From the NCBI RefSeq assembly GCF_004010195.1, contig NC_057710.1:58734870-58798869 (forward strand): a stretch of 64,000 bases of DNA. Direction: 5' to 3'. Source of the stretch: Chiloscyllium plagiosum (lineage: Eukaryota). A program made the position numbers and the translations under genes. Positions 1-50,900 of the stretch are shown here, piece by piece (position 1 is the first letter of the stretch; each line of letters opens with the position of its first letter). The notes below the pieces were generated by a model. The model saw nothing but the letters and a program-made list of their open reading frames with translations. It was not told where the DNA came from and searched no databases.

Positions 1-257
1 CCTTCCTAACCTGCAATCTTCTTCCTGACCTCTCCGCCCCCACCCCCACTCCGGCCAATCACCCTCACCTTGACCTCCTTCCACCTATCACATTCCCAAC
101 ACCCCTCCCCCAAGTCCCTCCTCCCTACCTTTTATCTTAGCCTGCTGGACACACTTTCCTCATTCCTGAAGAAGGGCTCATGCCCGAAACGTCGATTCTC
201 CTGTTCCTTGGATGCTGCCTGACCTGCTGTGATTTTCCAGCAACACATTTTCAGCTA
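1..257 (+). mobile_element. Penelope-like element 3' end / pseudo-LTR, cut by the window start, with a hammerhead motif
   Basis: Pyrimidine-rich tail, then CTGAAGA-AGGGC-TCAT-GCCC-GAAACGTC at 166-193. The downstream tail is shared with the copies at 15.8k, 24.1k and 49.5k. Confidence 0.8.
161..198 (+). ncRNA. Minimal type I hammerhead ribozyme motif (PLE-associated)
   Basis: Core CTGAAGA (166-172), stem II GGGC/GCCC, GAAA, palindromic ACGT stem III, GTC cleavage triplet (191-193). Confidence 0.75.
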
Positions 258-15807: not shown

Positions 15808-15905
15808 TCATTCCTGAATAAGGGCTTATGCCCGAAACACGATTCTCCTGCTCCTCGGATGCTGCCTGGCCTGCTGTGTTTTTCCAGCACCACATTTTTA
15901 AACTA
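15808..15905 (+). mobile_element. PLE 3' fragment with decayed hammerhead
   Basis: cattcCTGAATAAGGGCTTATGCCCGAAACAC followed by the family tail. Confidence 0.75.
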
Positions 15906-16644: not shown

Positions 16645-16780
16645 ATAGCTGTGGAGATAGTGAGGACTGCAGAGGCAAGTCAGAGTCGATAAAATGTAAA
16701 GCTGGAAAAAGCACAGCAGGTCAAGTAGCATCAGAAGAGCAGCAGAGTTGATATTTCAGGCAGGACCCTTATCAGAACTG
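16645..16780 (-). mobile_element. PLE 3' fragment with decayed hammerhead
   Basis: Reverse complement of the family tail; CTGATAAGGGTCCTGCCTGAAATATC on the minus strand. Confidence 0.7.
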
Positions 16781-22829: not shown

Positions 22830-25020
22830 ACTACTATTTATTTGTCTATTCATCCCAAGGAAGAAGAAACATACTAAGGGGGGAAATAGGCAACAGTGGC
22901 TGACAAGGGAAGCTAGAAGTTGACAAGCCTTTAAAAACCAACAAGAGGCCAACTTAAAAAGCAAAGGGGTGGTGGGGCAGTGTTTGGAGAAGATTAAATA
23001 TGAGAGTAAGCTAGCTATAAATATAAAAGAAGATTGTAAGAGTTTTTTTAATATCTATAAGATAAGAGAGAAACAAGATTGGACTGCTAAAAGAATGAGG
23101 TTGGAGAAGTAGTAGCAGGGATCAAAGTGGCGGAGGAACTGAATATGTACTTTACATCAGTTTTCATGGTGGAAGACACCAGTATCATACCAGAACTTCA
23201 AGAGAGTCAGAGCAGTGGCCATCAGTAAGGAGAAGTTGCTGGAGGAAGCTCAAAGATTTGAAGGTGGATAAAAGGATCAGATGGCCTAGACCTCAGAATT
23301 CTGAAAGAAGTAGCTGAGGATATTGTGGAGTTTTTGGAGGTGATCTTCCAGGGGAAGGAACTGGAGTCAGGAAGATCCCATAGTCTTAGAAAATGGCCAA
23401 TGTAAGACCACTGTTTAAGAAAGGAGGGAGGTAGAAGACAGGAAATTATAGGCTAGTTAGCCTGACCTGGGTCATTGGTAAGGTTTTAGAGTCCATTATT
23501 AATGATGAGATTGCAGAGTATTTGGAAGTAAAATAGGGTTGAGTCATGGCTTTGTCAAGGGAATGTCAGGCTTGACAAATCTGCAGGAATTCTTTGAGGA
23601 AGTAACAAGCAAGTTAGTCAAAGGTGAGCCAGTGGACATGATCTATTTGGATTTCCAGAAAGGAGGCTGCTAAATAAGGTAAAAGGTCATGGTGCTAGGG
23701 CAAGGTTCTGGCATGGATAATGGGTTGGCTGACTGGCAGAAGGCAGAGAACAGGGATAAAGTGATCTTTTTCAGGATGGCAGACAGTGAGTAATGGAGTT
23801 CAACAAGGGTGAATGTTGGGACCACAACAATTCACATTACACATTAACGATCTGGAGGAAGGAATAGAGGGCATTGTTGCTAAGTTTGCAGTGACATGAA
23901 GATATCTCGATGGGTAGGTAGTGTTAAGGAAGTGGGGAGGTTGCAGAAGGACTTGGACAGGCGAGGAGAGTGGACAAAGAAGTACCAGATGTAATATAAT
24001 GTAGGAAAGTGAGGTTATGCACTTTGGTAGGATGAATAGAGGCATAGCTGAAAATGTGTTGCTGGAAAAGCGCAGCAGGTCAGGCAGCATCCAGGGAACA
24101 GGAGAATCGACGTTTCGGGCATAAGCCCTTCTTCAGGAATTCCTGAAGAAGGGCTTATGCCCGAAACGTCGATTCTCCTGTTCCCTGGATGCTGCCTGAC
24201 CTGCTGCACTTTTCCAGCAACACATTTTCAGCTCTGATCTCCAGCATCTGCAGCCCTCACTTTCTCCTGAATAGAGGCATAGACTATTTACTAAATTGGG
24301 AAAGACTTTGGAAATCTGAAACACAAGGGGACTTGGCAGTTCTAGTTCAGGATTCTCTTAAGGTTAACATGCAGGTTAATTGGCTGTTAGGAAGGCAAAT
24401 GCAATGTTACCACTAATTTCTCGACTGCTAAAATACAATAGCAGAAATGTACTGCTGAGGCTGTATAAGGCTCTGATCAGACTGTATTTGGAATATTGTG
24501 AGCAGTTTTATCTAAGGAAGGATGTACGCGTCTTGGAGGGGGTTAAGAGGAGGTTTATAAGAATGATCTCAGTGATGAAGGGCTTGTCATATGAGAAGCA
24601 GTTGAGGACTCTGGGTCTGTACTCGATGGAGTTTTGAAGGATGAGGAAGGATTTCATTGAAACTTATAGAATGCTGAGAGGTCTGGATTGAGCAGACCTG
24701 GAGAAGCTGTTTCCACCAGTAGGAGAGACTAGGTCCTGAGAGTACAGCCTCAGAGTGAAGCACAGCCTCAGTTCAAAAGGATCCTTTTGAACTGAGATGA
24801 GGAGGAATTTCCACAGATGGTGAATCTGTGGAACTCATTGCCACGGAAAGCTATGGAGGCCAAGTATTAAAGACAGAGATGGATAAGTTCTTGATTGGTA
24901 AGGGGATCAAAGATCACACAAAGAAGGCAGGAGAATGGGTTGAGAAATCTATCGGGTATGATCGAATGGTGGGGCCTGAATGACCTAATTCTGTTCCTAT
25001 GTCTTCTGGTCTTATGTTCT
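22830..25020 (+). mobile_element. CR1 LINE (RT to 3' UTR), interrupted by a palindromic PLE
   Basis: ANVRPLFKKG, GNYRLVSLT and IYLDFQK-like motifs; 'LRLYKALIRLYLEYCEQF' ORF; CR1-like 3' end (cctaattctgttcctatgtct). Confidence 0.9.
24048..24267. mobile_element. Young palindromic PLE mini-insertion with two divergent hammerheads
   Basis: 94-bp arms 24046-24139 and 24140-24233, one mismatch, no loop. 15-bp TSD tgaatagaggcatag at 24033-24047 and 24268-24282. Cores at 24143-24170 (+) and 24136-24109 (-). Confidence 0.93.
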
Positions 25021-42391: not shown

Positions 42392-44488
42392 GTCATAGAG
42401 TCAGAGATATACAGCACAAAACAGACCCTTTGGTCCAACTCATTCAGGCCCCCATATATCCTAAATAAATCTTGTCTCATTTACTTGCACTTGGCTCATA
42501 TCCCTTTGAACCCTTCCTATTCATATACCCAACCAAATGCCTTTTAAAATTTTGTAATTGGACCAGCCTCCACCAGCTCATTCCACACACGCACCACCCT
42601 CTGTGAGGAAAAAGTTGTCCCTTTAATATTTTTCTCTCGCACCTTAAACCTATGTCCTCTAGTTCTGGACTGCCCCACTGTGGGGATAAAATCTTGTCGA
42701 TGTACCCTATCCATGCCCCTCATGATTTTTATAAACCTCTATAAGGTCACCCCTCAGCCTCCAACGCTACAAGGAAAATAGCCCCCGCAAATTCAGCCTC
42801 TCCCTCTAGCTCAAACCCTCCAACTCTGGCAACATCCTTGTAAATCTTATCCGAACCCTTTCAAGTTTCACAACATCCTTCCTATAGCAGGGGTCCAGAA
42901 TTACATGCAGCATTCCAATAGTAGCCGAACCACTATCCTGTATAGCCGCAATATGACCTCCTAACTCATATACTCAACGCACTGACCAATAAAGAAAAGC
43001 ATATCAAACACCTTCTTCACTATCCTATCTGTGACTCCACTTTCAAGGAACTATGAACCTGCACTCCAAGGTCTCTTTGTTCAGCAACACTGCCGAGGAA
43101 CTTACCATTAAGTGTGTAAGTCTGATTTGCCTTTTCAAAATGCAGCACCCCACATTTATATAAATTAAACTCTATCTACCATGCCTTGGCCCACTGGCCC
43201 ATCTGATCAAGATCTCATTGTATTCTGAGGTAACATTCTTTGCTGTCCACTATACCTCCAATTTTGGCCATAGAGTTCCACAGCATGGAGACATACCCTT
43301 CAGCCCAAACGTGTCCATGCCAACCAAAATGTCCATCCACTTTAACCCCATTTCCCTGCACTTGGCCATATCCTTCTAGTCCTTTCCTATCCATGTATTT
43401 GTCCAAATGCCTTTTAAATGCTATTAATGTACCCGTGTCAACCACTTTCACTGGCAGCTCATTCTGTAGGCATCCAACTCTGTGTAAAAACGTTGCCCCT
43501 CAGGTTCCCTTTTATTCTTTCCTCTCTAACCTTAAACTTATGCCCTCTAGTCCTGGATTCCCCAACCCTAGGAAAAAGACTGAGTGCATTCACCCAGTCC
43601 ATCCCTCTCATGATCTTAAAGACCTCTATAAGGTCCCCCTCAGTCTCCTACACTGTAAAGGAGAAAGTCCTAGCTTGTCCAATCTCTCCCTATAGCTTAG
43701 ACTGTTGAGTCCACATCACACCCTTGTAAATTTCTTCTGCATTTTTTCCTGTTTAATAACATCCTTCCTATAACAAGATGACCGAAACCCAACATAATAC
43801 TCCAAGTGCAGCCTCACCAACGTCCTGTATAACTGCAACATAACTTCCCAACTTCTTTACTCAATGCCCCAACTGATGGAGGCCAGTGTGCCAAAAGCTT
43901 CTTCACTGCCCTGTCTACATGTGACTCCACTTTGAGAGAGGTGTGATCCTGAACGCCAAGATCCCTCTGTTCCACTACATTGCTTAAGGCCCTACCATTC
44001 ACCATGAAACTCTAAACTTGGTTTAGCTTTCCAAATGCAATACCTCATAGTTATTTATATTAAACTCAACTTGCCATTTTTTGGCCCACTTCCCCAGCTG
44101 ATCAAGATCCAACTGCAATTTCTGATAACCTTCCCTACTTTCCACAATGCCGCCTATTTTAGTGTCATCAGCAAACTTACTAATCATGCCTTGTACATTC
44201 TCATCCATATCACTGATATAGGTAACAAACAGTAATGGGCCCAGAGTCGAAGAGTGTGGTGCTGGAAAAACAGCTGGTCAGACAGCACCCAAGGAGCAGG
44301 AGAGTCAACGTTTCTGGCATAAGCCCTTCATCAGGAATGGACCCAGCTCAGATCCCTTAGGCACTCCACTAGTCTCAGGCCTCCAGTCTGACAAGCATCC
44401 TTCCACTATTAGCCTCTGCTTCCTACCATCAAGTCAATTTTGTATCCAATTTGCTAGCTTGCCCTGGATTCCATGCGATCTAACTTTT
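42392..44488 (-). mobile_element. Two stacked CR1 LINEs (second 3' end at ~43268)
   Basis: ISKFADDTKIGG, QRDLGVQ and WQVEFN motifs; two 3' UTRs. Confidence 0.9.
44245..44335 (-). mobile_element. PLE 3' micro-insertion with hammerhead
   Basis: CTGATGAAGGGCTTATGCCAGAAACGTT at 44334-44307. TSD aatgggcccag / aatggacccag at 44234-44244 and 44336-44346. Confidence 0.8.
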
Positions 44489-47469: not shown

Positions 47470-50400
47470 TTAGAACATAGAACAGTACAGCACAGTAACG
47501 GACCCCTCGGCCCACAACATTGCGCCGAACAAGATGCCAAATTAAACTAATCCTTCCTGCCTGTCCTTGGTCCACATCTCTCCATTCCTTGCATGTTCAT
47601 GTCCTTTTCTAAACATCCCTTAAACGCCCCTATCATACCTGTCTCCACCACTACCCCTGGCACCACTTTCCAGTCTGTGTAAAAGAAACTTGCCTCTGAC
47701 ATACCGTTTGAATTTTCCTTCTTTCACCTTTAATGCATGTCCCCTAGTATTAAACATTTCCACTCTGGGAAAAAGATTCTGACTGTCAGCCCTATTTATG
47801 CACCTCATTAATGTTATAGACTGCCATCAAGTTTCCCCTCAGCCTCTGCTGCTGCAGCAAAAGCAACCTGAGTTTTCTAGCCTCTCCTCTAATCCAGCAG
47901 CATCCTTGTAAACTACTTCTGCACCTTCTCTAAAGCTTCCACATCCTTCCTGAAATATGGTAACCAGAATTGAATGCAATGCTCTAAGTGTGGCCTGACC
48001 AAAACCTTATAAAGCTGCAACGTGACATCCTGACTTTTGTACTCAATTCCCCAACCATACTCAATTCCCCAACCAATAAAGGCAAACATGCCATATGCCT
48101 TCTGCCCTACCTAGCTTCAGGGAGCAATGGACTTGAACCTCAAGATCACTCTATACATCAATGCTTTTCAGTCCTGTCATTAACTGTATACTTTTCCTTA
48201 CCATTTGATCTCCCAAAGTGCAGTACTTCTCAGTTACCTGGATTAAACTCCATCTACCATATCTCCACCCATATTTACAACTGATCTATATCCAGCTGTA
48301 TCATTTGACAACCTGCTACACTATCCACAATTCCACTGATCTTTGTGTCATCTGCAAACTTACTAACTCACCCATCTATATTTTCATCCAAACGATTTAT
48401 ATATATCACAAACAGCAGAGACCCGGTATGGATCCCTGTGGAATACCACTAGTCACGGACTTGCAGCCAGAAAAACACCCTTCCACCGCTACCTTCTGCC
48501 TTCTATAGGCAAGTCAATTCTGAATCCAAGCAGCTAAGTCACCATGGATTCCATGCATCTTAATTTTCTGAATGATCTACCATGAGGGACCTTGTCAAAA
48601 GCCTTACGAAAATTCACGTACACAACATCCACTACTCCATTCTCATCAATCACCTTTGTCACCTCCTCGAAAAATTCAATCAAGTTAGTAAGACATGACC
48701 TGCCCCACACACAGCCACGCTGACTGTCCTAATTGGCCATGCTTTTCCAAATATGTGTAAATCCTATCCCAAAGATTTCTCTCCAGTAGCTTCCCAAGCA
48801 CCGCTGCAAAACTCATTAGTCTATAGTTTCCTGGATTATCCCTGTTTCCCTTCTTGAACAGAGGAACAACATTAGCTGGGACTTCTCCAGTGGCTAGCTC
48901 TTGGTCTAGGCCCCAGCAATTTCCTCTCTTGCCTCTCTCAATAACCTGGGATAGATACGAGCAGGTCTGAGGACTTATTCACTTTAATGCTCTTCAGGAG
49001 ACCCAACACCACTTCTCTTGTGATCTCAAAATGCCCTAGCATATTAGCATGCTCCACTATCCTCCCTATCCTCCCTATCCTTCCCCTGGGTGAATACCGA
49101 TGCAAAACACTCATTTAGGATCTCGTCCACATCCTCTGCCTCTAAGCACAAGTTCCCTCCTTTATCTTTGAGGAGTCCTACCTTCTCCCTAGTTATGCTC
49201 TTATTTTTAATGCCTTGGGATTCTCTTTAACCCTACTTGCCAAGGTCACTTCATGGCCCCTTCCTGTTCTCCTAATTCCCTGCTTGAGTTCTTTCTTGCT
49301 TTCTTTATATTCCTCATGGGTCTGTCCAATTTTAGCTTCCTAAACCTTATATATGCTTCTTTTTTTTCCAACTAAATTCACAACCTCCCTCGTCATCTCA
49401 GGGTCCTTCCTCCTGACTGGAACATGCCAGTCCTAAACTCTAGGTTGAAACTTTATTGCTGGAACAGCACAGCAGGTCAGGCAGCATCCAGGGAACAGGA
49501 GATTCGACGTTTCGGGCACAGGCCCTTCTTCAGGACTCCTGAAGAAGGGCCTGTGCCCGAAACGTCGAATCTCCTGTTCCCTGGATGCTGCCTGACCTGC
49601 TGTGCTGTTCCAGCAATAAAGTTTCAACTTTGATCTCCAGCATCTGCAGACCTCACTTAGTCCTAAACTCTAATCAGTCGGTCTTTAAACAGCACCCACA
49701 TGTCAAATGTGGACTTGCCCGATAACAAATCCACCCAATTAACACTCCCTAGCTCTTGCCTCATACTTATGTTGCCATCCCCCAATTTACTACCTTTCCC
49801 ACAAGGTCCTGACCTATTCTTCTTCATAGCTATCTTAAAACTTAGGGAGTTGTGTTCACTGTTTCAAAATGCTCTCTCAATGCAAGGTCAGTCACCTGGC
49901 CAGGTTCATTAGCCAATACAAAGTCCAGTATGGCCCCTCCTCTAGTGGGACTATCCACACACTGTTTCAAGAAACCCTCTTGAAAGCACTTTAAAAAATT
50001 CTGCCCTGTCTAAGCCTCTTGCTCGAAGGAAGTTCCAGTCCATATTGGGGAAGTTAAAGTCACCCATTACGACAACCCTGTCTGCCTAACATATTTGTTC
50101 CTCAATGTCTCAGTGGCTGTTTGGGGTCCGAGAGTATAATCCAATCAGAGTGACTGCACCCAACTTATTTTTTAGCTGTACCCATATTGCCTCAATGGAT
50201 CAGCCCTCCAGTATGTCCTGAGTGTAGCTGTGACATTCTTCCCAATTAGTAATGCAATCCCTCCATCTCTTTTACCTTCCACTCTATCTCATCTAAGACA
50301 GTGAAATCCTGGAAAGTTGAGCAGTCAATCCTGTCCCTCTCTCAACCAAGGAGAAAGTGAGGACTGCAGATGCTGGAGATCAGAGCTGAAAATGTGTTGC

Positions 50401-50900
50401 TGGAAAAGCGCAGCAGGTCAGGCAGCATCCTTTGCTACAACACCATAGTCCCATGTACTGATCCAGGCTCTAAGCTCATCTGCTTTACCAATACATTCTA
50501 TGCATTGAAAGAAACACATTTCAGCCCATTAGTACCATCATGTTCATTTACCTGTCTCTGCCTGTCCTTCCTTTCTGACTTACTAGTCCTAACATCTATC
50601 TTCCCCCTCAATCCCTTCACTTGCTGACCTGCTGCTCTCACTGATTCCCATTGCCTCCCTCCACTCTAGTTTAAACCCTCCCACCACTTTAATTTTAAAC
50701 CATTCCAAGTAGCACTAGCAAATCTACCTGTGAGGATATTGATTCCCCTCCATTTTATGTGCAACCCGTCCCTCTTGTACAGGTCACCCATGCCCCAGAA
50801 GAGGTCTCAATGATTGAAGAACCTGAAACCCTGCCCCTGCACCAGCTACTCAGCCACACATTCGTCTGTCCTATCTTACCATTCCTTGCCTCACTAGCAA
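47470..50900 (-). mobile_element. Long degenerate CR1 LINE (ORF1 end, endonuclease, RT, 3' UTR)
   Basis: Reverse-complement motifs KFADDTK, GIPQGSIPG, NYRLMSF and DFNFPN; tagaacatagaa tail. Interrupted by PLE pieces at 49443-49658 and 50351-50430. Confidence 0.9.
49443..49658. mobile_element. Young perfect palindromic PLE mini-insertion with two divergent hammerheads
   Basis: 92-bp perfect arms 49444-49535 and 49537-49628, 1-nt centre. 14-bp TSD agtcctaaactcta at 49429-49442 and 49659-49672. Cores at 49539-49566 (+) and 49533-49506 (-). Confidence 0.94.

Follow-up and report, generated by a model that had tools for sequence, protein, structure and literature searches.

A palindromic insertion with paired hammerhead motifs in Chiloscyllium plagiosum, probably a dead-on-arrival copy of a Neptune-type Penelope-like element

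A stretch of 64,000 nt from Chiloscyllium plagiosum (NC_057710.1, positions 58,734,870 to 58,798,869; hereafter the window) contains a palindromic insertion at 24033..24282, with a hammerhead motif on each strand beside the symmetry centre. An earlier note, made from the letters alone, left two readings of it: a non-autonomous, retrozyme-like family that propagates by itself, or a recurrent by-product of the integration of autonomous Penelope-like elements (PLEs). Which of the two fits this locus and its relatives in the genome?

The insert is 220 nt long (24048-24267) and is flanked by an exact 15-nt target site duplication (TSD), TGAATAGAGGCATAG, at 24033-24047 and 24268-24282, which grows to 16 nt if one mismatch is tolerated (the copy is L012 in our sample). 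Pairing about 24139|24140 is loopless, with 94-nt arms (24046-24139 and 24140-24233) and a sole mismatch, which falls on a CpG site (arm position 69; 24071 C / 24208 A). The outer 2 nt of the left arm double as the final 2 nt of the left TSD; this AG also matches the element and would be microhomology at the priming site. A 34-nt tail (24234-24267, plus strand) lies outside the inverted repeat. The size of the insertion, the TSD, the repeat with its one mismatch and the tail, as first described, were all recovered. Numbering the A of ATTCC at 24139 as +1, we read the insert as an inverted arm (24046..24140, minus strand; +1 to about +95 of the PLE pseudo-LTR, or pLTR) and a direct arm (24139..24267, plus strand; +1 to +129), which meet in the centre GGAATTCC (24136..24143).

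The host sequence is a decayed LINE-type reverse transcriptase (RT) on the plus strand, about 23400..24900, recognized from its translations and from alignment to a paralogue in locus L086; we take it to be CR1-like. The flanks of the insert translate as a single LINE-like frame, and the TSD gives the peptide NRGI on both sides. This LINE also holds a short perfect palindrome with 17-nt overlapping arms at 24767-24796, unrelated to the PLE arms. The exact 28-nt centre of the insertion occurs at 721 loci in the 3.56 Gb assembly, to which all genome-wide counts refer, and a control gave 0, so that on its sequence the palindrome can be taken as confirmed and not as a chance arrangement. Loose ends at 24139/24140, 24228/24233 and 24268 in contigs from three sequencing runs only echo the boundaries of the family, and those at 24139 are partly native upstream sequence. 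An artefact of assembly or library preparation, such as a fold-back chimera, would suit an assembly with many gaps, and no long read or contig was seen across the locus. Such an origin has next to no probability, because the TSD is exact and duplicates codons of a continuous host LINE frame, the tail makes the structure asymmetric, the arm mismatch is of the CpG type, and 44 of 50 sister copies with the same centre have TSDs of their own (37 of them 15-17 nt; overall 13-20 nt). A MITE in the sense of a DNA transposon was rejected on the tail outside the repeat, the TSDs of 13-20 nt and the variable left end. The earlier proposal that the unit is made by retrotransposition is supported.

Judging by its longer relatives, the insert is the 5' end of an abundant Neptune-type PLE, from +1 to +95 in the inverted arm and from +1 to +129 in the direct arm. 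In longer copies the arm runs past the tail into an open reading frame (ORF) that starts at about +167. In related copies the pLTR is continuous with RT-like sequence (RVT_1, E 5.5e-4, below the Pfam cut-off) and is linked to a C-terminal GIY-YIG endonuclease (EN; E 7.4e-5, above the cut-off). For example, L203 contains a GIY-YIG motif with two Cys between GIY and YIG, which is not seen in the stump, a Cx4CxxC linker (CHRRRCKTC) immediately before EN, and a pLTR also after EN. The CX2-5CxxC linker between RT and EN, which is shared with Nematis, points to the Neptune-type clade. The features of an EN+ PLE are found here: an ORF with RT and GIY-YIG in related copies, a one-sided tail with an inverted copy, and a hammerhead motif in the pLTR. 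The pLTRs linked to ORF, RT and GIY-YIG, together with the motif described below, uphold the earlier view that the unit derives from the pLTR of a PLE and carries a minimal type I hammerhead. Genome-wide, exact matches to the tail number 68,306 and exact matches to the ORF start only 339, so stumps dominate. Six long candidates out of at least 150 matches were examined and none was an intact autonomous copy; each is interrupted by gaps or stops, or lacks a matching ORF start. ORF-linked pLTRs of the subfamily of the present copy do exist (L184, L190, L193, L205). Two short upstream ATG frames, about 26 and 42 codons by eye, lie in the 5' UTR (24157-24237, and from 24190 into longer copies). 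In the native upstream sequence, L201 and L203 have some 22 nt before +1 a pyrimidine tract that closes with AG and resembles a 3' splice site; one also lies at about 120-140 in the window.

The minimal type I hammerhead motif on the plus strand spans 24139..24174 and consists of helix I ATTC/GATT (3 pairs and a U-U mismatch), the core CTGAAGA (24143-24149), an extra A, stem II GGGC/GCCC (24151-24162), GAAA and a palindromic ACGT, with a predicted cut at 24170/24171. The motif scan places its mirror on the minus strand at 24105..24140 (predicted cut 24109/24108). As had been claimed, a core lies on each strand beside the symmetry centre: CTGAAGA-A-GGGC-TTAT-GCCC-GAAACGTC begins at 24143 (plus) and 24136 (minus), and the motif occupies +5..+36 of the pLTR. 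Rfam at gathering thresholds gave nothing in the whole window, and the identification as a hammerhead is therefore based on the motif together with a published descriptor (PMC4209133). According to the same source, cleavage by minimal hammerheads is poor and requires a partner on the same strand. In computed folds, read-through RNA of the full palindrome forms a single extended hairpin (-192.5 and -199.0 kcal/mol) in which stem II has a probability of 0.0; for one arm by itself the value is about 0.63. Such a hairpin would abolish the ribozyme fold in read-through RNA, and only a transcript initiating at the centre would be predicted to expose the motif. The suggestion that a ribozyme is presented whichever strand is transcribed holds for the letters, but fails for the computed fold, with one sense motif per strand.

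If the unit were a non-autonomous palindromic family (MITE- or retrozyme-like), master palindromes would be transcribed whole and re-inserted in trans. The occurrence of the exact centre at 721 loci is what such a family would predict. These are 721 of 7,024 head-to-head loci in which the same flanks stand 0-30 nt apart (14,591 with a looser head-to-head pattern). By hand count, the first 50 of the 7,024 loci contain 36 different centres: GGAATCC, the commonest, 9 times, which a master family would also explain, GGAATGATTCC 5 times, the present centre 3 times, and 33 unique ones; about 15 of the 50 hold snippets copied from the pLTR. The arms were compared in an exact-centre sample (50 listed of the 721 loci) and a tail sample from the first 3.8 Mb of contig C1 (99 of 100 listed tails, 98 rows after deduplication, 90 without the 8 rows with N at the junction), in which 46 of the 90 N-free rows are two-armed insertions. 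At non-CpG positions, divergence between arms is 3.1% within a copy and 9.6% between copies (90 of 95 copies scored), which answers the comparison proposed in the earlier note: arms match within copies. Both arms of a copy usually bear identical subfamily diagnostics, and the same centre recurs across several subfamilies; subfamilies are mixed between the arms of L001, L040 and perhaps L037. Ten copies have an arm identical, at the scored positions, to the left arm of the present copy, and 5 of these 10 have another centre. No non-CpG difference between left and right arm recurs in more than 4 of 95 copies. Seven private non-CpG events are common to both arms, against 55 single-arm private positions, and gene conversion could also give such sharing.

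Because centres vary, identical arms come with different centres and arms match within copies, the mirror is to all appearance built de novo at each insertion and is not a self-propagating mini-element. Shorter left arms with an intact TSD (L010, L015, L017, L041, L047) are what 5' truncation in a master family would give. Against that family stand, besides the 36 centres in 50 loci and the identical arms with different centres, the recurrence of one centre in several subfamilies, the scarcity of recurring left-right differences, and the ORF-linked pLTRs of the subfamily; furthermore, the activity of the Poseidon element needs RNA downstream of the tail (PMC11167929), a region that the stumps do not contain. 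We regard it as very improbable. No junction inherited from a master copy was seen in these samples, and of the two outcomes set against each other in the earlier note, inheritance as a clade or copy-specific junctions, the second was observed. Nor are the junctions scattered at random along the PLE, an outcome that would have told against the earlier account; they concentrate at a single position, +1. Of the two readings in the earlier note, a by-product that recurs when autonomous PLEs integrate is the one upheld by the copy-specific centres and the ORF-linked pLTRs, and "stereotyped unit" holds for the outer ends but not for the centre, which differs among copies.

The outer ends are regular. 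In the 50 exact-centre copies, left ends are most frequent at 90-98, and right ends at 128-131. In PAc, a Poseidon element of Anolis, both strands are cut and extended, and two internal RT start sites bound the tail (PMC11167929). These in-vitro data come from a clade other than Neptune and show no strand difference in start site, which tells against too close a parallel. By analogy, the end peaks fit two internal start sites of this kind: the outer end of the inverted arm would be the inner start site, and the 34-nt tail the interval between the two. Among the 50 copies, which were chosen by centre alone, both ends lie at a start site in 42. A script counted 40 of these 42 as one-of-each, with one long-long and one short-short (p 4e-10); on hand correction L040 is short-short, which leaves 39 of 42. 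Long arms likewise end at about +94 (L201, L203, L173). A search of titles and abstracts, outside Repbase, Dfam and subscription journals, found no published description of coupled use of start sites in PLEs.

The inner ends point to a stop at +1. Among 98 tail-anchored direct arms, 38 start at -3..+3, 12 upstream and 48 downstream. ORF-bearing copies also begin at +1 (L176, L177, L183, L185, L200, L205), and pieces from +1 to 94/129 lie behind ORF fragments in L160, L173 and L205, as if a cDNA had run off and jumped. The step is softer genome-wide, where 29,995 of 66,151 arms that reach +1 retain 7 native upstream bases, so that about half continue. C or TC at -1/-2 is kept in 24 of 45 ends, some of them from older subfamilies, and the start is therefore not confined to a single base.

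Where the base before +1 is non-native, it is G in 59% of cases genome-wide (10,476 of 17,743), as against 27% expected, and the share stays about the same after removal of an estimated ~2,000 G and ~1,400 A cases from inverted junctions. In copies without an inverted arm, G was found in 12 of 20 ends at +1 and in 8 of 32 other 5' ends (Fisher p 0.019), a small control that excludes 22 rows with native G and includes old diverged arms. Reverse transcription of an RNA cap adds such a G, although a literature search on cap-derived G returned no paper, and TCATTCC presumably fits the initiator consensus. Published work places the start of PLE transcription inside the pLTR. We infer that ATTCC may be a capped transcription start, the +1 of the direct arm. 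Cap run-off in PLEs was likewise not found described in the search of titles and abstracts (Repbase, Dfam and subscription journals lying outside it). The hammerhead cut was considered as the cDNA stop and rejected: 170 loci are centred near the cut, a rough figure since the pattern width differs from that of the 7,024 count, and 2 of 98 direct 5' ends fall at +31..35. So few ends at the cut suggest that the template was uncleaved RNA.

The stop at +1 could instead be a structural pause or processing site (helix I, a bound protein, a splice junction) on a longer RNA, with double priming as otherwise proposed here. +1 is the first base of helix I, about half of the arms read through it, and in D. 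virilis the 3' end of an intron maps to the 5' end of helix I (PMC4209133). Yet the native sequence before +1 reads CTC, with no AG; a pause would show no preference for G as the added base; and the initiator-like TCATTCC and the published PLE starts in the pLTR both favour initiation. There is little chance that this variant is right.

A single cDNA, or an antisense RNA (PMC3846280), could also have primed on itself at +1 and been copied back to about +94, the unstable centre being revised later. Such self-priming has already been proposed for palindromic junctions in rotifer PLEs (PMC3846280), and it would account for the single tail per insertion and for the identity of the arms, including private shared variants such as a deletion in both arms of L005. 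The inverted arm, however, has sequence missing from the direct arm in 24 of the 46 two-armed copies (L129 and second views of L103 and L106 dropped), extending further 5', with more than 70 nt of native upstream sequence in L066 and L106. Fold-back of a tail-primed cDNA cannot give these longer inverted arms, a reading that later central deletion could blur. Among copies with other centres, 8 of 35 have identical arms and divergence is no higher (p 0.43), so the variety looks present at birth. The long arms that end at about +94 and the G before +1, which points to a capped sense template, also weigh against fold-back; we consider it unlikely, though less so than the two preceding alternatives. 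The related idea that the exact centre is a young state and the others later revisions was dropped, since arm divergence did not differ between the centre classes (p 0.43).

We therefore favour, as the probable account, a dead-on-arrival insertion of an autonomous Neptune-type PLE, in which the 5' end of the element's own mRNA was copied by double target-primed reverse transcription. The GIY-YIG endonuclease would cut both target strands about 15-16 nt apart, a geometry suggested by the observed TSD. Each target 3' end would then prime a cDNA within the 5' UTR, one at about +94 and the other at about +129, and both cDNAs would run to the RNA 5' end ATTCC, where the pile-up is observed and a cap is presumed. 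Going by the junctions, the two like-sense cDNA ends would be joined by microhomology or templated end joining, in the present copy through a 2-nt overlap AT at the centre, and then filled in. Longer and tandem copies could arise when a cDNA jumps from +1 elsewhere on the RNA, or by priming in a downstream pLTR, and the hammerheads would be passengers. L1 twin priming is similar in the use of two nicked strands as primers and in microhomology joining, and retroviral strong-stop DNA in the short cDNA run-off at the RNA 5' end with a possible jump. In L1, however, the second primer copies another stretch of the RNA, further upstream, while here both copy the same 94 nt.

The coupling of start sites and the identity of arms suggest that one RNA serves both primers. 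More tentatively, and with somewhat less than even confidence, a dimeric RT-endonuclease may prime both nicked strands on one capped sense RNA, with one subunit per tail end, giving two "strong-stop" cDNAs that are joined head to head or jump to the 3' part of the RNA. If true, one rule would account for the pLTR, the inverted repeat and the one-sided tail, and would argue against antisense self-priming.

Several parts of this picture are known from PLEs (PMC8969392 was also drawn on). Inverted pLTRs, one-sided tails and palindromic junctions have been published, and canonical EN+ insertions share with the present one a tailless head-to-head copy, a tail at one end, a TSD, junction palindromes and an initiator-like pLTR motif (PMC3846280, PMC8557442, PMC2377424). 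The tail of D. virilis Penelope, at 34 nt, has the same length as here. In contrast to canonical EN+ PLEs, both arms here are shrunk to the 5' UTR and stumps far outnumber ORF-bearing copies, and the TSDs, mostly 14-17 nt long, exceed the 8-10 nt of the rotifer examples. PAc has in common with this element that both strands are cut and extended, that two internal start sites bound the tail, and that hammerhead cleavage is dispensable; it differs in that its ORF starts inside the hammerhead and its start sites lie in the ORF, whereas here they lie in the 5' UTR of an element with a Neptune-type linker (PMC11167929). The PAc text as consulted here contains no discussion of inverted copies, cap run-off or site coupling (PMC11167929).

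The minimal hammerheads of metazoan PLEs share the core, the extra base before stem II, the G-C closing pair and a palindromic 15.2-16.2 without helix III; here, however, stem II has 4 bp, helix I has the U-U mismatch of the subfamily, and the cores are only 6 nt apart, while the opposite-strand pairs already known are 100-700 bp apart (PMC4209133). Non-LTR retrozymes are also short, non-coding and derived from PLE pLTRs with a type I hammerhead, but they form head-to-tail tandems with same-strand ribozymes and circles, as opposed to the head-to-head layout here with one sense ribozyme motif per strand (PMC7229834, bioRxiv 10.64898/2026.07.22.740005). Identity with a non-LTR retrozyme was rejected on this head-to-head, non-tandem arrangement. 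Head-to-tail arrays of pLTR and ORF start do occur at L167 (C6:64808666-64809164), L169 and L170, with periods of 232/233, 165 and 153 nt, and the units of L167 bear the hammerhead motif and would suit a retrozyme layout.

The window contains further copies. A second two-armed insertion (49446..49658, plus strand) belongs to another subfamily and has the centre GGACTCC and a 14-nt TSD. At 61-256 (plus) lies the 3' end of a copy that is longer and includes native upstream sequence; it stops at +94 and has no tail. Single arms, from the same subfamilies or from older ones, were found at 15811-15898 (plus), 44242-44337, 50350-50430 and 16653-16732 (all minus). Elsewhere in the genome, L173 has, about 1,400 nt past the ORF start, a piece from +1 to 94 fused to an ORF fragment via an A9-T7 run, as if a cDNA had jumped to a prematurely polyadenylated RNA end. 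L001 (C1:13016594) has full tails on both arms, which show 10 mismatches and belong to different subfamilies. No TSD could be identified there, and the locus may mark a breakpoint of recombination or inversion involving two copies. In L086 (G000:C1:1076574-1079605) an independent insertion, with another centre and of another subfamily than the copy at 24033-24282, occupies the same 15-nt site in a diverged paralogous LINE copy, and together the two suggest a target hotspot. TGG is enriched near the TSD start (17 of 84; shuffles mean 5.4, max 18). Symmetric target recognition is not supported, as CCA at the opposite TSD end is not enriched (6 of 84 against 5.6).

In summary, this locus is a commonplace PLE stump, one among tens of thousands, and represents a familiar kind of structure instead of a new mobile family. 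The same title-and-abstract search (Repbase, Dfam and subscription journals outside it) returned no published description of such stumps. What may be new is the excess of non-native G before +1 and the one-of-each use of start sites, neither of which was found in print there. The origin of inverted pLTRs and one-sided tails in PLEs has been called unresolved (PMC8557442), and the stump population yields testable predictions about it: that cDNAs run off at a capped start, that each start site serves one primer, and that two cDNAs are joined by their ends. Annotation should class such elements neither as MITEs nor as retrozymes. For the shark genome, nearly perfect hairpins, 7,024 or more in number and reaching about 95 bp, would be potential dsRNA substrates and fragile sites, and, if the promoter is internal, these hairpins would be outward-facing promoter pairs.
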